Source: Gemmatimonadales bacterium (GTDB lineage Bacteria; Gemmatimonadota; Gemmatimonadetes; Gemmatimonadales; GWC2-71-9). From it: a stretch of 64,000 bases of DNA. The DNA is taken from positions 4,266-68,265 of the forward strand of contig DATGEQ010000114.1 in the NCBI GenBank assembly GCA_035309945.1. The letters run 5' to 3'. The notes under the pieces were generated by a model. It did not search any database. It was not told the DNA's origin and saw only the letters and a program-made list of their open reading frames with translations. This document shows, piece by piece, positions 41,099 to 48,519 of this stretch (positions are counted from its first letter, which is position 1; every line of letters begins with the position of its first letter). A program made the translations under genes and the position numbers.

Positions 41099-41368
41099 AT
41101 GTTTGCGACGTTGGGCCTCATCCTGGCCGGCACCGCGCTGGTCGGGGGATACACCGTCACCAAGAACTTCGTCCGGCGCCGGCTGCGCTACGTCGATGCG
41201 GTTAAGAGACCCGCCGCGCCGCTCGTCGCGGGAGCCGTTGCCGCGGTGGCGCTGCTGCCGGCGACGTTATTGCCCGCGATTGGCGTGGGGACGATGTTGG
41301 CGTTGGGTGTCGGTGTAGCCGGTGGAGTGGCGAGCGGCCGGAACGCGCCTCCCCCCGAGAACGACTAG
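41099..41368 (+). CDS. small (89 aa) 3-TM membrane protein
   Basis: ATG 41099 is preceded by AGGAGA (41089-41094), one of the few clear Shine-Dalgarno sites in the window. Confidence 0.5.
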   Translation: MFATLGLILAGTALVGGYTVTKNFVRRRLRYVDAVKRPAAPLVAGAVAAVALLPATLLPAIGVGTMLALGVGVAGGVASGRNAPPPEND

Positions 41369-42249
41369 CCGGCGCGCAACGCCTCGGGGCGGCCGGCCAC
41401 CATTCTGAGTGCGCGCACCGCTTCGCGCGCAAAGGTGTGGCCCGCACCCTTCTCGATTTCCTCCAGCGCGCTCCAGCGCGTGAACGCGGGGCGCACCGGC
41501 GTCGCCATCTGCAGCGTCTCGAATGCGTCGGCGACGGCGAGCACCTTCACCGTCATCGGCATCGGCAGCGCTTCGATATCCCACTCATCGCCGACGATCT
41601 CGTAGTAATGCGAGTACTCCGCGATGATCTGCGCGGCGCCGCGGAGCGCGCGCGCGACCGCCAACGTTTCATCCGTCACGGAGCGCGTCAGCAGCTTCAG
41701 CAAACGCTGATCGGCCGTTCCCACTTCGTGCAGGAGCGCCGCGATCCGCAGGTTCTCGAGCTCGCCCGCCGGCAACTTGAGCTCTGCGCCCATGGCTGCC
41801 GCAAGCTCGGCCACGCGAGTCGAATGACCTTCTTGATTCGTCTCCGCTGACTCGATGTGAAAGGTCAACACCTCGAGCGTAGCGAGATACGCGTTCTTGA
41901 GATCGGTGAGACGCGACGCGCGCTGTTCGGCCAGACCGCCCACGACGTAGCCGGTGAGGATGAGAAAGCCGGCCCACGGGACCAGCGTCAACAGCGTGTC
42001 CTCGCTCAACCCCGGCGCGTCGCCGAGGCCCTGCGTTGCCTGGAAGAACAACACGAGCGCTACGACAAAAAATCCGGATCCGACGGCGAAGCGGCGGCCG
42101 CCATAAAAGCCCGCGAGAATGATCGGTAGATAGTAGAAGCTCAGAAACGCGAACTTTTGGTCGATCAGGGAATTGATGACGAGCATCGAAGCGACGAGCA
42201 GCACCACCAGAACGCGCTCGAAATGCTTCAAGAAGAACTGCTGAATCAC
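41365..42249 (-). CDS. membrane protein with degenerate HD-GYP-like domain
   Basis: ORF 41365..42339, GTG 42249 preferred. 5 TM helices, then ..GHSTRVAELAAAMG..LRIAALLHEVGT.. (HE replaces HD), ..EYSHYYEIVGDEWD.. (replaces HHE..GYP), ..VLAVADAFETL... Confidence 0.55.
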   Translation of the reverse strand: MIQQFFLKHFERVLVVLLVASMLVINSLIDQKFAFLSFYYLPIILAGFYGGRRFAVGSGFFVVALVLFFQATQGLGDAPGLSEDTLLTLVPWAGFLILTGYVVGGLAEQRASRLTDLKNAYLATLEVLTFHIESAETNQEGHSTRVAELAAAMGAELKLPAGELENLRIAALLHEVGTADQRLLKLLTRSVTDETLAVARALRGAAQIIAEYSHYYEIVGDEWDIEALPMPMTVKVLAVADAFETLQMATPVRPAFTRWSALEEIEKGAGHTFAREAVRALRMVAGRPEALRAG

Positions 42250-42414
42250 AAAACCCTTTCGACTAAGGAGATACAGCGCGGGCGAGCGTCCGAACCAAAG
42301 TGAGTGAGTGGTAGGCAATCTGCAAGTGAGAACGGTCACAATCGCGCACCATTGAGCACGCGGTAGCGCCCGGCACGGAATTCGCCTAGCCGATCACCCG
42401 GGGAGATGCGTGGA

Positions 42415-42705: not shown

Positions 42706-43542
42706 TTGGAGCCCGTGAGCTCGGCCCAGGTCGACGACTTCGGGCTGCCCCCCGGAGTCCGAGACGAGTACCTCCAAGGCGCGCGCGATCAGTTGGGCGC
42801 AATCGCAGAGCTGGCGGAGCGGCTGATCGCCGCCGGCGACGACACGGCCGCAATCGAAACGCTGCGCCGCGATGCCCATCGTCTGCGTGGCTCGGCCGGA
42901 TCGTTCGGATTTCCCCAAGCCTCGGTCGTCGCCGCCGAGCTCGAAGAAGCCGCCAAACGCTGGCTCGAGCATCCCGACAACGGCGTGGGGGACCGCGGCA
43001 AAATGACTCGTGCGTTCGTTCGCCGCCTCGCAGCGTCGCTTTTCACGAAACAGGCTACTGCTCCCGCCGCGGCACCGCCGTCTGACGTCGCCGCCCCTGC
43101 GCCGCCGCCTTTGATCGCCGCCCCTTTGCCGCCCCCCTCCACCGCAATGTCGGAGCCGGACGTTCCCGAAGTAATCGTCGTCGAGGATGATCCTGCCTTG
43201 GGAGAGCTGCTCACTTTTGGTCTCGAGGCGCGTGGATATCGGTTCCTGCACTTTCACAATGGCCGCGAGGCGCTGGACGTGCTCGAAACGATGGACACGC
43301 GCGGCACGAGGCAAGCGCCACTGCTGCTCCTGGACGTCGACCTTCCGGCGCTGGACGGGTACTCAATTTTCGAGGAGCTGCAGCAGAAATGCCCGGGGAA
43401 GTTCCGCGTGGTCTTCACGACCGTGCACGGCAGCGAGACCGAGCAGCTGCGTGGTCTTGAGGCGGGCGCGATCGACTACATGGTCAAGCCGATGAGCCTG
43501 CGCGTGGCGCTGGAGAAAATCCGGCGCTGGGTGGGCCGATGA
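42706..43542 (+). CDS. Hpt - linker - receiver (REC) phosphorelay protein
   Basis: Hpt His motif ..RRDAHRLRGSAGSFGF... Ala/Pro linker. REC with ..VIVVEDD.. ..LLLLDVDLPALDG.. ..DYMVKP... TTG 42706 (alternative GTG 42715). Confidence 0.8.
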   Translation: MEPVSSAQVDDFGLPPGVRDEYLQGARDQLGAIAELAERLIAAGDDTAAIETLRRDAHRLRGSAGSFGFPQASVVAAELEEAAKRWLEHPDNGVGDRGKMTRAFVRRLAASLFTKQATAPAAAPPSDVAAPAPPPLIAAPLPPPSTAMSEPDVPEVIVVEDDPALGELLTFGLEARGYRFLHFHNGREALDVLETMDTRGTRQAPLLLLDVDLPALDGYSIFEELQQKCPGKFRVVFTTVHGSETEQLRGLEAGAIDYMVKPMSLRVALEKIRRWVGR

Positions 43543-44600
43543 AGGCGCACACCTTTCTCATCGTGGTTGCCATTGTCCAGGGATTTCTGCTCGGCGCCCT
43601 CATGGCGCTGATCGTCCTGAACCGCTGGTTTCGGTTGCGCCGGAGCTCGCGCCTCAATCCTCGCCGCGAAGCGGTCGATGCCTCGATGCGCCGCTGGACC
43701 GCGGGGGCCGCCCCGCTCGCCGGCGTGCTCGTCGGGCTGTCGCGTCTGCCCGTCCCGCTTGCGATCGATGCGCTCGTCAAATGGTCGGCGCGCGTGCCTG
43801 GCGAGCGCTGGCGACAGCTGGCGGAAGCGCTCGAGCACACCTGGTGGGCCAGGCTGGTCCGCGCGAACAGCAGCTCGGCGCGCTGGTGGAAGCGGCTCGA
43901 AACTGCTCGATTCCTGAGCGTCGCGGCCACACCTCGCGACGTCGCGCGGCTCACGACCCTCATCGACGATCCGCATCCTGCCGTGCACGTGGCAGCGGTC
44001 GCGAGCCTCGAGCGCATGGAAAACACGCGGCTCACCTTGGCCGCGCTCGACCGGCTCCCGCAACTCGCACCGACCGTGCAGGCCTATTACGCCGCGATGC
44101 TGCTGCGCTCACGCCCGGTCGTAGTCGAACATCTGCAAAAGCGCCTGCGCCGTAGCGAAGACCCCGCCCTTCCCCGGCTGGCCGAATTCGCCGCCCGGCT
44201 GGGCGAGCCGGCGTTGCGCGAACGCCTGACCGCGCTCGCCGATCACCCCGATCCGGAAGTCCGCGTGCAGTCGGCGCGGGCGCTCGGCAGTTTTCCGCAT
44301 CGCGACTCGGTGACGGCGTTGAAACACCTCATCGTCGACGATGCCTGGGCCGTGCGCGCGCAGGCCGCGCGCTCGCTCGGCATGATCGCGGATGTGAGCG
44401 TGCTGCCGCTCGTGAAAGCCGCGCTGCGAGACGACGTCTGGTGGGTGCGGCTGCGCGCCGCGCTCGCGCTGATGCGCTTCGCCGCCCCAGGGCGCAATGC
44501 CCTGCTCGAGGCCGAAGTCGGCGCTGATCCGTCTGCGCGGACGATCGCACAGATGGTGCTGGGACTGCCCGCGCAAGCGCTGGCGGAGTTCGCCGCGTGA
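43539..44600 (+). CDS. N-terminally anchored HEAT-repeat protein
   Basis: One TM helix, then repeated ..D(P/D)xxxVRxxAAxALG.. units (HPAVHVAAVASL, DPEVRVQSARALG, DAWAVRAQAARSLG, DVWWVRLRAALAL). ATGA overlap upstream and GTGA overlap downstream. Confidence 0.7.
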   Translation: MKAHTFLIVVAIVQGFLLGALMALIVLNRWFRLRRSSRLNPRREAVDASMRRWTAGAAPLAGVLVGLSRLPVPLAIDALVKWSARVPGERWRQLAEALEHTWWARLVRANSSSARWWKRLETARFLSVAATPRDVARLTTLIDDPHPAVHVAAVASLERMENTRLTLAALDRLPQLAPTVQAYYAAMLLRSRPVVVEHLQKRLRRSEDPALPRLAEFAARLGEPALRERLTALADHPDPEVRVQSARALGSFPHRDSVTALKHLIVDDAWAVRAQAARSLGMIADVSVLPLVKAALRDDVWWVRLRAALALMRFAAPGRNALLEAEVGADPSARTIAQMVLGLPAQALAEFAA

Positions 44601-46732
44601 GCGTCTTGACGAACATCATCGCGGGGACGGACCTGACGATCCTCGTCTACTTCCTGGTCCTGAATTCGTTCTACGCCGTGCTGCTCATTCTCTCCATCCC
44701 CGAGATCTGGGAGCAAACGCGACTCGCCGAAGACGAAGACTTCCAGCGCCTGATGCAGAGCGACGCCTTGCCGCCGATCACGATCCTGGTGCCCGCGTAC
44801 AACGAGCGCGCGACGATCGAAGCGAGCGTAACGGCGATCCTGACGCTCGAGTATCGCAACTACGAAGTCGTGGTGGTGAACGACGGCTCGAAGGACGACA
44901 CCCTGGAGCGGCTGCGTCACGCCTTCGACCTCTATGAAGTTCCACGCATCTATCCTGAGACGATCGCGACGATGCCGCTGCGCGCGCTGTACCGCTCGCG
45001 GTCGCGCTCACGACTGCTCGTGCTCGACAAGGAGAACGGCGGCAAGGCGGATTCGCTCAACGCCGCGATCAATGCGTCGCGGTTTCCCCTGGTCATAGCC
45101 GTCGATGCCGATACCCTCATCGAGCCGGACGCCTTGCTGCGGCTCACACGCCCATTTTTACTCGGCCGCGAGATTGCGGCGGTGGGCGGCACCGTGCGCG
45201 TGGCCAACAACTGCACGGTGAAAGACGGGCGCGTCATCGATGCCCGCGTTTCCCGCAAGCTGCTGCCGGGCATCCAGGTGGTGGAGTATCTGCGCGCATT
45301 CCTGTTCGGCCGCCTCGGCTGGAACCGCCTGGGGGGCAACCTCATCATCTCCGGCGCGTTCGGCCTGTTTCGCAAGGAGTACCTGATGGCGGTCGGCGGC
45401 TACCGTACGACCAGCATCGTCGAAGATCTCGATTTGGTCGTGCGGCTGCACCGCTACCTGCGCGCGCAGAAGATCGATTACGTTATGCCGTTCATTCCGG
45501 ACCCGGTGGCGTGGACCGAGGTGCCCGAATCGATGAAGGTCCTGTCGCGCCAGCGCGAGCGGTGGCATCGGGGCCTGATCGCCGCCATGTGGCAGTACAA
45601 ATCGATGCTCTTCAACCCGCGCTACGGGCGAATCGGGTTGCTGGCGATGCCGTTCTATGCCTTCGGCGAAATGCTCGCGCCGGTCGTCGAGCTGGCTGGC
45701 TACCTGATCACGGCGGTCGGCCTTGTGTTCGGAATGGTCAACGTCTCATTTGCGCTCCTGTTCGTCCTGGTCGCGTGGGGGTACGGCATGCTGCTATCGA
45801 TCTGGGCGGTCGTGCTCGAAGAAGTCAGCTTCCGCCGCTATCGCCGGTTCGACGATCTCTTCCGGATGCTGCTGTTCGCTTCACTCGAGAACTTCGGCTA
45901 TCGCCAATGCACGGTCTGGTGGCGGCTCAAGGCGTTCGTGAGCGTGTTCAAGGGCGTCCACGTCTGGGGGGACATGGCGCGCAAAGGCTTCGGAAAACCG
46001 AGTGTCGCGGCACTGCTCGCGCTGTGCCTGGCCGCGCCGTGCCTCGGTCAAAACGCGCGGCTGTCGGCCTGGAGCTCGTACGAGTCCGTCTCCGGCAGTC
46101 AGGACTGGTCGACCCTCGGCGGTCAGTTTACTGTCACGTCAGCGCACGGGAACGGCGGCTGGATTGCCGCCGAGATGCTCGGCCGGTTCGGCAAGACGGA
46201 TGTGCACGAGCGGATCGGTGCGGTTCTCCATCCGACGCCACGGCTCTGGCTCACCGCCGAGGCAGGCACGTCCAAGCACCCGGTGTTCTCGCCGAAGAAC
46301 ACCTGGGAGTTGGACGCGAGCGCGCTCGTCGCACCGCGCGTTTCGGCGGGACTCGGGTACCGACGCTGGAATTACGTGGTCGGTCCGGTGGACGTCTGGA
46401 TGCCACACCTGGAGACCGAAACGGCCAAGATGTCCTGGGCGCTGCGTTTTTCTGTGTCCCGCAATCCAACCCACCGAACGGACCTGGCCGGATCCGTCAG
46501 AGCATCGCGCGCGATTTCGCATCGCACCACCATTTCGGTGCTCGGCGCCGGAGGCCGGGAGAGCTACTTCGTCGGCGGCTCGATACAGTCGCTGAAAACG
46601 CTTACCGGTGTGGCGGGTGTCCGCTACAATGCTGCGCGCGGCACGACGCTGCGGCTCGACGTTAGCGCGATTCACTCGAGTCCCGTTTTGTCCCGCGGCG
46701 GAGTCGCGATCGGTGTGGAACGGGGCCTCTGA
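44597..46732 (+). CDS. processive family-2 glycosyltransferase (PgaC/YaiP-like synthase) fused in frame to a YaiO-like outer-membrane beta-barrel domain
   Basis: Single 711-codon ORF. GT2 motifs VVVNDGSKDDT, AVDADT, QRERW, then 4-5 TM helices. From codon 460: a signal-peptide-like segment plus a roughly 225-aa beta-rich domain. Confidence 0.8.
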   Translation: MSVLTNIIAGTDLTILVYFLVLNSFYAVLLILSIPEIWEQTRLAEDEDFQRLMQSDALPPITILVPAYNERATIEASVTAILTLEYRNYEVVVVNDGSKDDTLERLRHAFDLYEVPRIYPETIATMPLRALYRSRSRSRLLVLDKENGGKADSLNAAINASRFPLVIAVDADTLIEPDALLRLTRPFLLGREIAAVGGTVRVANNCTVKDGRVIDARVSRKLLPGIQVVEYLRAFLFGRLGWNRLGGNLIISGAFGLFRKEYLMAVGGYRTTSIVEDLDLVVRLHRYLRAQKIDYVMPFIPDPVAWTEVPESMKVLSRQRERWHRGLIAAMWQYKSMLFNPRYGRIGLLAMPFYAFGEMLAPVVELAGYLITAVGLVFGMVNVSFALLFVLVAWGYGMLLSIWAVVLEEVSFRRYRRFDDLFRMLLFASLENFGYRQCTVWWRLKAFVSVFKGVHVWGDMARKGFGKPSVAALLALCLAAPCLGQNARLSAWSSYESVSGSQDWSTLGGQFTVTSAHGNGGWIAAEMLGRFGKTDVHERIGAVLHPTPRLWLTAEAGTSKHPVFSPKNTWELDASALVAPRVSAGLGYRRWNYVVGPVDVWMPHLETETAKMSWALRFSVSRNPTHRTDLAGSVRASRAISHRTTISVLGAGGRESYFVGGSIQSLKTLTGVAGVRYNAARGTTLRLDVSAIHSSPVLSRGGVAIGVERGL
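45974..46732 (+). CDS. possible independently initiated YaiO-like OM beta-barrel (nested, in frame with the GT2 ORF)
   Basis: ATG 45974 preceded by GGGGGG. MARKGFGKPSVAALLALCLAAPCLG|QN looks like a Sec signal. At 252 aa the length is about that of E. coli YaiO. Segments ..RLWLTAEAGTSKHPVFSPKN.. and ..GLGYRRWNY.. resemble my recollection of YaiO ..NWLTTRTGIAFADNTPVFARQD.. and ..TGYRYTKYY... Confidence 0.4.
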   Translation: MARKGFGKPSVAALLALCLAAPCLGQNARLSAWSSYESVSGSQDWSTLGGQFTVTSAHGNGGWIAAEMLGRFGKTDVHERIGAVLHPTPRLWLTAEAGTSKHPVFSPKNTWELDASALVAPRVSAGLGYRRWNYVVGPVDVWMPHLETETAKMSWALRFSVSRNPTHRTDLAGSVRASRAISHRTTISVLGAGGRESYFVGGSIQSLKTLTGVAGVRYNAARGTTLRLDVSAIHSSPVLSRGGVAIGVERGL

Positions 46733-46837: not shown

Positions 46838-47260
46838 ATGAAAAAGCGTACACTCGTCGCCGCGTTGCTCGCGCTGGCCCTTGGCGTACCCGCCGTGGTG
46901 CATGCGCAGCAGCCCGGCGATTCCAACCGAGACAAGCGCGAAGTGCGCAGCGACCGACGCGACTTGCGTCGTGATCGTCGTGACGCGCGCAGCGATCGGC
47001 GCGACATTAAGCACGACAATCACGATATCCGGCAGGACCAGCGCGAGCGCCGGCAGGACATGAAGCAGGGTGATACCACGGCGGCGCGTCGGGAATCGCG
47101 TGACATCCGGCAGGACCGGCGTGATGTTCGCGGTGACCGCCGCGACCTGCGGAGCGACCGGCGTGATCGCCGCTCCGACCGGCGTGACGTGCGGCAGGAT
47201 CGGCGTGATGTCAACCGCGACCGTCACGACAGCAGCGCAACTCCCCCAAAAAATCCGTAA
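46838..47260 (+). CDS. secreted highly charged heptad-repeat protein (DRRDxRx)n
   Basis: ATG 46838 with signal peptide MKKRTLVAALLALALGVPAVVHA|QQ. Residues 31-131 consist of about 13 imperfect 7-aa (21-nt) repeats. Confidence 0.6.
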   Translation: MKKRTLVAALLALALGVPAVVHAQQPGDSNRDKREVRSDRRDLRRDRRDARSDRRDIKHDNHDIRQDQRERRQDMKQGDTTAARRESRDIRQDRRDVRGDRRDLRSDRRDRRSDRRDVRQDRRDVNRDRHDSSATPPKNP

Positions 47261-47283
47261 TTGCCAGCGGAGATGATTGCCAG

Positions 47284-47311
47284 GTAGGGGCGCAGCATGC
47301 TGCGCCCCTAC
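47284..47311. repeat. 28-bp perfect palindrome GTAGGGGCGCAGCATGCTGCGCCCCTAC (REP-like / bidirectional terminator), copy 1
   Basis: Self-complementary 28-mer followed by TGTTTTTGTT. Identical copy at 58570-58597. Contains the TAG stop (47308-47310) of the converging dipeptidase gene. Confidence 0.8.
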
Positions 47312-48519
47312 TGTTTTTGTTGCCTGCTGGTTCTCGCGACCTGCTCCGCCGCGCGCATAATGCGCAGGATATTCAATCCGGCAACTTTCCTCACGTCCGC
47401 CGTCGACCAGCCCCGGCGCAGCAGCTCGGCGATCAGATCGGGAAACTTCGACACGTCCTCCAAACCCACCGGTACGTCGGTGATGCCGTCGAAGTCGGAG
47501 CCGATGCCGACGCAATCGACGCCCGCGACTTTGCGGATGTATTCGATATGATCGGCGACCTGTTGCAGTGTGGCATGAGGTCCACGGGCGTTCCAGACGT
47601 TCACCGAATCGGCGCGGGTGGCTGAATCGGCTCCCTCCGCGCGTAGCTGCTCCAACCGCGCATCGACGCTGTCGCCGTAGACCCGCACCGCCTCGGAAAC
47701 AAAGCCGGGATTGAAGTTCACCATGACGATGCCCCGGTTGGTCGCGACGAGCTTCAGGATCGAGTCCGGCACGTCTCGCGGATGATTGGTGAGCGCCCGT
47801 GCCGAGGAGTGCGAGAAGATGACGGGCGCGCGCGAGGTGTGAAGCGCGTCCGACATGGTCTGATCGTTGACGTGCGACAGGTCGACCAGCATGCCCAGCC
47901 GGTTCATCTCGAGCACGACCTGCTTGCCGAACGCCGACAGGCCGCGATGGGACGTATCGGTCGACGCGACGGCCCAGTCCAGGCTCCGCCAGTGCGTCAG
48001 CGTCATGTACCGCGCGCCCAGATCGTAGAACATTCGCAGCGCGCCGAGCGAGTTTTCGATCGCGTGGCCGCCCTCGATGCCGATCAGGCAGGAGAACTTG
48101 CGGGCAGCGAAGTTGTGCTCGACGTCGGCGGCGGTGTATGCCATCGCCATGCTGCGGGACGTGCTGCACAGCCGGTGCACGAGATCGATCTGCTCCAGCG
48201 CATACACCGCCGGATGCTGGCCGGAATCCATCGTCGTGGTGGGGACATAGGCGGCCCAGAACTGGCCGGCGACGTGGCCCGCGCGCAGCCGCGGGAGATC
48301 AGTCATGAGCTTCGGCTGACTTACCGCGAAGTCGACCGAATCGAGTCCCCCGCGCTCGCGAATCGCATCCGGAATGTCGTTGTGCCCGTCGATGAGAGGA
48401 ACGGTCATGAGGATGGCGATCGCCCGCGTGCGCAACGAGTCCGGCACGGTCTGGGCGGGGCAGCGGTGTGGCCGAGCGAGCGACAGAAGGATGGCGAGGC
48501 CGGCGAGCTGTTTGATCAT
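47308..48519 (-). CDS. M19-family membrane dipeptidase
   Basis: Signal peptide. ..IDGHNDIP.. ..LTHWRS.. ..VDLSHV.. ..IFSHSSA.. ..GIGSDFDG.. motifs. Confidence 0.9.
   Translation of the reverse strand: MIKQLAGLAILLSLARPHRCPAQTVPDSLRTRAIAILMTVPLIDGHNDIPDAIRERGGLDSVDFAVSQPKLMTDLPRLRAGHVAGQFWAAYVPTTTMDSGQHPAVYALEQIDLVHRLCSTSRSMAMAYTAADVEHNFAARKFSCLIGIEGGHAIENSLGALRMFYDLGARYMTLTHWRSLDWAVASTDTSHRGLSAFGKQVVLEMNRLGMLVDLSHVNDQTMSDALHTSRAPVIFSHSSARALTNHPRDVPDSILKLVATNRGIVMVNFNPGFVSEAVRVYGDSVDARLEQLRAEGADSATRADSVNVWNARGPHATLQQVADHIEYIRKVAGVDCVGIGSDFDGITDVPVGLEDVSKFPDLIAELLRRGWSTADVRKVAGLNILRIMRAAEQVARTSRQQKQ

Follow-up and report, generated by a model that had tools for sequence, protein, structure and literature searches.

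The window considered here is a 64,000-nucleotide stretch of DNA from a Gemmatimonadales bacterium (contig DATGEQ010000114.1). One of its genes encodes, in a single polypeptide, a membrane synthase of glycosyltransferase family 2 (GT2) and an outer-membrane β-barrel, joined by an internal segment homologous to true N-terminal signal peptides. As a rule, an outer-membrane barrel is synthesised as a precursor of its own, which bears its signal at the N-terminus. In this gene, the reading frame opens with GTG at 44597 and closes with the stop codon at 46730-46732; the synthase part (residues 1-469) and the barrel (residues 485-711) are read in one frame, without an intervening stop. A first-pass annotation, made from the letters alone, had described just such an arrangement: GT2 enzyme, signal-like segment, and barrel in a single frame. 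The frame, the junction, and the ATG at 45974 all are as it described them, and Pfam, AlphaFold 2 (AF2), and the unfused orthologues agree with its reading of a GT2 tail, a Sec-type signal-like segment, and a YaiO-like barrel. The features of the gene are as follows.

44597..46732, + strand: fused gene, 711 residues; GT2 synthase, internal signal peptide, and 14-strand outer-membrane barrel (intact open reading frame)
44597..45973, + strand: GT2 synthase module, residues 1-459 (Pfam, NCBIfam, BcsA match, hydropathy, motifs)
45974..46003, + strand: synthase tail or n-region, MARKGFGKPS, residues 460-469, with Met460 at 45974-45976 (unfused orthologues, invariant residues)
46004..46048, + strand: h-region and c-region, VAALLALCLAAPCLG, residues 470-484 (59 distinct fused junctions, standalone signal peptides)
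46046-46048 / 46049-46051, + strand: predicted signal peptidase I site, G484/Q485 (−3/−1/+1 pattern, register with standalone signal peptides)
46049..46729, + strand: mature barrel module, residues 485-711, 227 residues, 14 predicted β-strands (AF2, Foldseek, PF19413, dN/dS)

The order at the junction is WGDMARKGFGKPS, VAALLALCLAAPCLG, and then Q. Written in full it reads GVHVWGD, M460, ARKGFGKPSVAALLALCLAAPCLG, Q485, and NARLS, and the ATG at 45974 (codon 460) follows tGGGGGGac. The 711-residue protein is 100% identical to database cluster P0001. Fused proteins of this kind are deposited either as "glycosyltransferase" or as "YaiO family outer membrane protein"; neither name shows the fusion.

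The two halves of the fused protein

The synthase half carries the complete GT-A motif set of a processive membrane GT2 of the BcsA/PgaC/NodC type. Pfam places GT2 domains at residues 59-395 (PF13641/PF00535/PF13632), and the D, DxD, ED, and QxxRW motifs are present as NDGS95, DAD170, VED275, and QRERW319. The best NCBIfam match is a partial one to PgaC_IcaA (1e-39). It falls far below the cutoff of the PgaC/IcaA equivalog TIGR03937 (136.5 bits versus 422.3), and the polymer therefore cannot be named from it. The closest solved membrane synthase is BcsA, matched over residues 45-398 with an E value of about 1e-6.

Hydropathy analysis finds one N-terminal transmembrane segment (residues ~12-35), a block at residues 346-409, and a short segment at residues 465-485. 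The cytoplasmic GT-A domain is assigned between the N-terminal helix and the block, which comes after QRERW; the BcsA alignment runs on to residue 398. In synthases of the BcsA/PgaC/NodC type, transmembrane helices at this place form the channel for the polymer; the block may correspond to them, within a half that AF2 models with low confidence. C-terminal to the block is a basic amphipathic region, residues 410-459. Counted through to residue 469, it holds 12 lysine or arginine residues versus 6 aspartate or glutamate.

For the barrel half, AF2 was run on residues 460-711 with a 25-sequence alignment. The prediction is confident (mean predicted local distance difference test score, pLDDT, 89.9; predicted template-modelling score 0.80) and comprises 14 antiparallel strands spanning residues 486-710, the first of which starts 2 residues past the predicted cleavage site; the signal-like part is of low confidence. 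The first-pass annotation had expected a β-barrel here, an expectation that this model upholds. Foldseek searches of the PDB returned outer-membrane barrels only. The best was the 14-strand porin OmpG (template-modelling score 0.63-0.69), which has the same strand number and a similar size; sequence identity to OmpG is 8-9%, with no evidence of homology or shared function, so the likeness is one of fold class only.

Several lines of comparison connect the barrel to the YaiO family. The YaiO outer-membrane domain model TIGR04390 (NCBIfam) aligns at residues 494-708, covering model positions 8-228 of 230, with scores (20.8 bits for the full protein, 24.1 for the module) below its cutoff of 32. 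The Pfam YaiO family, PF19413, likewise scores below cutoff in the window copy (15.9 bits versus 23.9; E value 0.013), and is the top Pfam family in all 25 members of the barrel alignment (E ≤ 0.1, best 2.6e-7). The TIGR04390 coverage and the 25 PF19413 matches amount to family-level similarity along the whole domain. The module also shares the family trait of a signal peptide followed by an all-β barrel of ~230 residues, and JGI or NCBI assigns several of its homologues to the YaiO family by name. Similarity to E. coli YaiO itself, whose precursor is 257 residues long, as the first-pass annotation had given approximately, is marginal: BLASTP gives an E value of 0.028 with 23% identity over 136 residues, beginning just after both signal peptides, and hhalign, given the barrel family profile and the lone E. 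coli sequence, detected nothing (probability 0.15%). Judged by the profile matches and the model, the C-terminal module appears to be a distant member of the YaiO family of outer-membrane barrels.

The AF2 model has no periplasmic tetratricopeptide repeat (TPR) scaffold, and the barrel begins 2 residues after the site. An N-terminal TPR region is present in two distant relatives of the barrel, P0137 (393 residues) and P0180 (458 residues), which have a PgaA/NfrA-like layout. In the window copy, as in many other fused ones, the barrel C-terminus (last residue at 46727-46729) reads GVERGL; most standalone relatives end, as is usual, in an aromatic residue (ERSF, ERQF); the Arg at position −3 is unusual for an outer-membrane β-signal. 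A 184-residue fragment, P0127, joins the synthase transmembrane sequence LLFLLVAW directly to the barrel sequence SSYEGV, skipping ~90 residues. It probably reflects a chimeric assembly or a deletion between two "AW" motifs.

The junction and the history of the fusion

Unfused synthases terminate in WG[DE]MxRKGF plus 3-26 residues (for example KGFATPS, KGFAET, or KGFSTP before the stop). WGDMARKGF, with its Met460, therefore belongs to the synthase, and comparison with these orthologues marks Met460 as an ancestral residue of the synthase tail. Across 120 fused proteins Met460, R462, K463, and G464-G466 are invariant, and K467 is present in 119. Thus the basic tail of the synthase (R462, K463, K467) takes the place of a signal n-region. 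It is followed by an h-region, VAALLALCLAA, of ~11-12 residues, which has the length of a signal peptide and not that of a transmembrane anchor, and by a c-region, PCLG.

Variation at the predicted site was examined in 59 distinct fused junctions. Only G, S, A, or C occurs at −1; C, V, L, G, or A occurs at −3; Pro is found at −4; and +1 is always Q. In 53 of the 59, Met460 and the site are 25 residues apart. Upstream sequences vary by fused group (KGFGKPS-VAALL, KGFATS-AVALCV, KGFGSSS-IAAPLL). Standalone barrels have ordinary N-terminal signal peptides, for example MTRRIVAALTAGWLAAAGLRA/QTLRVAAWGSYEGV (the slash marks the site). Their mature N-terminus aligns with Q485: the orthologue site is a small residue followed by Q, with the mature start Q..R..AW.SYE.V, in register with G484/Q485. 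The variation is that expected of a working signal peptidase I site. Together, the residue pattern, the homology, and the basic region upstream point to an internal signal with n-, h-, and c-regions, small residues at −3 and −1, and an N-in/C-out orientation. A lipoprotein signal using Cys477 or Cys482 was considered and ruled out. No lipobox is present, the residue at −1 being wrong in both L-A-L-C and A-A-P-C, and several fused variants lack the Cys residues (AKPVHA/Q, SLGA/Q).

The fusion is old, widespread, and selected. Searches with the full protein found at least 120 clusters of ~711 residues (77-100% identity) from NCBI, JGI, ENA, and Logan (longest contig 1.19 Mb), all from Gemmatimonadetes/Gemmatimonadales. 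Of ~90 fetched loci, ~60, from metagenomes or metagenome-assembled genomes, have the frame uninterrupted. A stop after RKGF, for which the first-pass annotation had proposed to look, is lacking in these fused loci and present in the unfused synthases. Among 46 complete fused genes the median synonymous divergence (dS) is 0.85-1.1, and the ratio of nonsynonymous to synonymous divergence (dN/dS) is 0.074 for the synthase, 0.175 for residues 460-484, and 0.198 for the barrel. The barrel therefore has been under purifying selection while fused (dN/dS 0.20 at dS about 1.1), and the fused frame is far beyond a chance open frame in GC-rich DNA.

The fused gene is the third of an operon whose order, Hpt-receiver, transmembrane HEAT, GT2, barrel, is constant across loci. 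The two genes ahead of it are as follows.

42706..43542, + strand: Hpt plus receiver-domain gene, first in the operon (Pfam Hpt and Response_reg; conserved synteny)
43539..44600, + strand: HEAT-repeat gene with a single transmembrane segment (Pfam HEAT_2/HEAT), adjoining GT2 in every related locus examined

Both upstream junctions are 4-nt stop/start overlaps: ATGA at 43539-43542 (Hpt-receiver/HEAT) and GTGA at 44597-44600 (HEAT/GT2). At the barrel end, related loci take four forms.

Separate genes, barrel ATG or GTG overlapping the synthase stop by 4 nt (ATGA/GTGA), the most common separate-gene form: L008, L092, L093, L095
Separate genes, 11-nt spacer with GGAGG: L009, L010, L011
Fused: window, L002-L007, most metagenome loci
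Barrel absent at locus: L063, L071, L073, L077, L080, L075, L081, L090

The whole operon appears to be translationally coupled, the fused junction being the sole place where an overlap became a single frame. Because the operon exists unfused with 4-nt overlaps, and the upstream junctions of the window have them too, the fused junction reads as the merged form of a translationally coupled gene pair. A single small indel (or deletion) at the ATGA/GTGA overlap would be enough to join the frames. Gene fusion, one of the possibilities first raised for this locus, stands in this evolutionary sense; its companion, a recent loss of the stop codon, does not.

When 1.84 billion representatives were searched exhaustively with the barrel module, only 21 matched, and all fused forms fell in one 50% cluster. 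The nearest relatives outside that cluster are standalone proteins of ~250 residues, and a profile search found many further standalone forms. Barrel relationships were estimated by neighbour-joining with 100 bootstraps, which gives crude trees. Fused barrels were monophyletic in 0 of the 100. The fused group L007/L072/L087 is supported as monophyletic (97/100) and falls outside the main clade of fused forms (84/100), and the fused L065 has a barrel with 68% identity to the standalone P0152, versus 55% to the window. Conversely, separate-gene barrels nest within the main fused clade: L009 and L011 in 100/100, P0166 in 99/100. Similarities of the two modules are also discordant between loci. 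Relative to the window, L009 is 78% identical in GT2 and 69% in the barrel, and L007 is 88% identical in GT2 and about 50% in the barrel. By these sequence relationships, fusion, fission, and/or module exchange occurred more than once; the direction of each event is not fixed by these trees.

L009 and L011 are informative in detail. Their barrel gene begins, behind a good GGAGG site, at a Met matching Met460 (MARKGSGRRGVAALLALCLATPCLG/Q), and has nearly the same signal as the fused form. This looks like the re-split of a formerly fused gene, or the transfer of a barrel module from a fused lineage. M[AV]RKG occurs twice in each, 44 nt apart, at L009 4957-5030 and L011 628-700: once in the synthase tail (MVRKGFATPS before the stop) and once at the barrel start (MARKGSGRRG). 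An origin of the fusion by recombination between the two L009 motifs was considered and appears less likely, since the fused junction retains F466 and P468-S469 of the ancestral synthase tail, and since the L009 barrel nests in the fused clade though its GT2 is more distant (78%).

Loci that lack the barrel keep the Hpt-receiver, HEAT, and GT2 genes. In the GT2 tree some of their synthases lie among those of fused genes, a placement suggestive of barrel loss.

Proposed processing of the fused chain

How might one chain supply proteins to two membranes? A cleavable internal signal was among the first possibilities raised for this gene, and is the mechanism that the sequence comparisons support best: the chain is probably a polyprotein, cut by signal peptidase I at the internal signal peptide, whose barrel goes on to the outer membrane. 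Ribosomes would translate the whole 711-residue chain, which must be made because no stop lies between the modules in at least 120 clusters and ~60 loci. The synthase half would insert in the inner membrane, with its basic C-terminal region (residues 410-469) remaining in the cytoplasm. Residues 470-484 would enter the Sec translocon N-inside/C-outside, in the fashion of a signal peptide; the basic region ahead of the h-region fits both the cytoplasmic location and the signal-like orientation. The 227-residue barrel domain would be translocated, and signal peptidase I would cut at G484/Q485. The freed barrel would then be folded into the outer membrane by the β-barrel assembly machinery (BAM), and presumably would let the polymer of the synthase out through a small pore of OmpG size. 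The synthase, for its part, would retain the former signal peptide (residues 470-484) as an extra C-terminal transmembrane helix. Most likely, then, the pore is set free by a cut at a former export signal built into the chain.

Four points weigh against this reading. In the full-length AF2 model the synthase half is not reliable (pLDDT below 50 for residues 1-482), and the cytoplasmic location of residues 410-469 is therefore argued from the positive-inside rule and from BcsA-type synthases as analogues; because its alignment had close homologues only, the model also is uninformative on packing of the h-region against the synthase helices. The role as a polysaccharide pore draws on gene linkage and on analogy with PgaC/PgaA and NfrB/NfrA. 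Orthologous loci without the barrel exist, so the barrel is dispensable in some lineages. And some barrel protein could come from internal initiation at Met460.

That last route, in its full form, would have ribosomes start at the ATG at 45974 through a G-rich ribosome-binding site and make a separate barrel precursor, the full-length chain being a by-product or processed as well. The L009/L011 barrel gene, whose barrel lies inside the fused clade (100/100), starts at exactly the Met460 equivalent (MARKG), so a Met460-initiated precursor is viable. The invariance of Met460 in fused proteins and the GGGGGG at −8 to −3 in the window, which had served as the original clues, also fit such a start. 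Met460 is, however, a residue of the synthase tail, and both it and TGGGG are found in unfused synthases, where they are not starts (L008, L009, L071, L073-L090). The G-run is real in the window and is not conserved. In the 59 fused junctions the Gly458 codon is GGC in 45 (76%), GGG in 9, GGT in 4, and GGA in 1, which matches gene-wide glycine usage (GGC 36, or 62%; GGG 9, or 16%; GGT 7; GGA 6). The G-run also lies just 2 nt from the ATG. A selected Shine-Dalgarno sequence before Met460 was accordingly rejected: Gly458 codon usage is that of the background, and TGGGG is dictated by the Trp-Gly codons, in unfused genes too. By synonymous-site diversity, a weak test, the junction departs from the gene mean by no more than ~1 standard deviation and does not rank with the lowest-scoring windows. 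Moreover, ribosomes that complete the synthase meet no stop codon and continue into the barrel, so that the full-length chain arises anyway and needs processing in any case. Internal initiation at Met460 thus is unsupported as the source of the barrel, and seems unlikely.

An uncleaved chain would either bridge both membranes or keep the barrel part attached at the inner membrane or within the periplasm, where it would have another role. Single chains that span the envelope are known, with long periplasmic linkers; PelB, for example, is described as combining an N-terminal anchor, a TPR domain, and a porin. No positive point favours such a chain here. The first β-strand follows the hydrophobic segment after just 2 residues, and without a linker an uncleaved chain could not reach the outer membrane. 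In addition, the h-region has signal-peptide length, the −3/−1/+1 pattern is kept as in standalone precursors, and orthologues occur as separate proteins. An uncleaved envelope-spanning chain is implausible on the predicted structure, and very improbable overall. Least credible of all is an artefact or a decaying gene, in which a sequencing or assembly error or a recent stop loss has created the frame and the barrel is non-functional. One nucleotide change at an ATGA overlap could indeed create such a frame. Nevertheless, at least 120 independent clusters from four data sources, on contigs to 1.19 Mb, and ~60 loci carry it, with dS of about 0.85-1.1 and dN/dS of 0.07-0.20 on all parts; assembly or base-calling error, which the first-pass annotation had left open, and recent stop loss are refuted by this conservation and selection.

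The signal-peptidase reading can be set beside several known systems. One is E. coli yaiO/yaiP, a cluster in which the gene for a YaiO-family barrel of ~230 residues with a signal peptide shares its strand with the gene for a membrane GT2 (YaiP; 29% identity to the window synthase over the GT-A domain, E value 6e-14). YaiP lacks the WG[DE]MxRKGF tail of the window synthase family, and the two E. coli genes are separate and non-adjacent. The first-pass annotation had placed them side by side; they do form one cluster, but in K-12 the IS2-disrupted yaiX lies between them. Because YaiO/YaiP function is uncharacterised, the comparison says nothing on mechanism.

In synthase-dependent exopolysaccharide systems (PgaC/PgaA, BcsA/BcsC, NfrB/NfrA), likewise, one operon encodes both a processive membrane GT2 and an outer-membrane barrel. 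PgaA and BcsC are 16-strand barrels with TPR. The window porin, in contrast, is predicted to have 14 strands and no TPR, its synthase and porin share one frame, and its partners are the transmembrane HEAT and Hpt-receiver proteins. The NfrB/NfrA synthase-barrel pair has been described (PMC8669469, PMC8669472).

A synthase joined to its partner is known from Gluconacetobacter hansenii AcsAB, in which cellulose synthase and its partner are made as a single polypeptide that is split proteolytically (PMC4877109). AcsAB of Gluconacetobacter/Komagataeibacter thus resembles the window protein in carrying a GT2 synthase and a partner beyond the inner membrane in one polypeptide; the partner there is the periplasmic, inner-membrane-anchored BcsB, and here an outer-membrane barrel. 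The processing step itself reportedly has a counterpart in Bradyrhizobium FbcH, a cytochrome b/c1 precursor that Thony-Meyer and colleagues are said to have found in 1991 to be cleaved by signal peptidase at an internal signal peptide. FbcH likewise joins, in a single frame, a polytopic inner-membrane protein to an internal signal peptide and then to a domain for export, but its exported part stays at the inner membrane, whereas the window barrel would travel on to BAM. By its sequence features, the synthase-barrel fusion would belong among signal-peptidase-processed fusion proteins, within synthase-dependent export systems.

We know of no described polyprotein of an inner-membrane synthase and an outer-membrane porin, and none was found in the searched literature; searches on bacterial internal signal peptides, fbcH, and YaiO/YaiP function likewise yielded nothing directly relevant. 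The broader proposal is one of delivery in cis: a polytopic inner-membrane enzyme would bring a barrel precursor to Sec as its own C-terminal extension, signal peptidase I would cut it free, and the arrangement would have arisen, or been reversed, several times. This proposal is somewhat favoured. Repeated rise or reversal within one bacterial family suggests that such delivery is tolerated or even advantageous (1:1 dosage; a pore above its synthase). If so, an internal signal peptide behind a multi-pass inner-membrane enzyme can serve bacteria to export an outer-membrane protein, and the few bacterial polyproteins that signal peptidase divides would gain a porin.

The locus forms (barrel absent, separate and overlapping, separate and spaced, fused) provide a ready-made comparison set, which could show whether fusion alters stoichiometry, the spatial coupling between synthase and pore, or dependence on SecA or chaperones. 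They could also serve as a natural experiment on how outer-membrane proteins are targeted and on how genes fuse and split where stop and start codons overlap. More broadly, the operon points to an uncharacterised, minimal polysaccharide export system, consisting of synthase, transmembrane HEAT protein, Hpt-receiver protein, and 14-strand pore without TPR, in the Gemmatimonadales, an abundant and poorly studied soil group.

The flanks of the operon

A divergent gene precedes the operon, and genes for an M19 peptidase, a Fer2 protein, and an aldehyde oxidase lie downstream.

41365..42339, − strand: divergent membrane protein with an HD-GYP-type HD domain (Pfam HD_5/HD, PF13487/PF01966)

This neighbour is retained in L007, L008, L012, L063, L065, L072, and L081 (tblastn synteny). 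It possibly is a cyclic di-GMP phosphodiesterase, and its retention may tie it to the synthase-barrel system. It is the sole hint of cyclic di-GMP. The receptor that canonical exopolysaccharide synthases have on or next to the enzyme, I-site included, was not found: Pfam searches of the GT2, HEAT, and Hpt-receiver proteins detected no PilZ, PgaD, MshEN, GGDEF receptor, or modifying enzyme. In the barrel-less loci L081 and L090, the convergent M19 peptidase gene comes almost directly after GT2.

Just past the fused gene in the window is a small open reading frame, 46838-47260 on the + strand, with a good signal peptide (MKKRTLVAALLALALGVPAVVHA/QQ). Its body is highly charged, with DRRD(V/L)R(S/Q)DRRD-type repeats (Tandem Repeats Finder period 21/42). 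There was no tblastn match to it in 16 related loci, and it is either lineage-specific or not a real gene. A GC-rich 13-bp hairpin at 47283-47312, followed by a T-run, comes after it.

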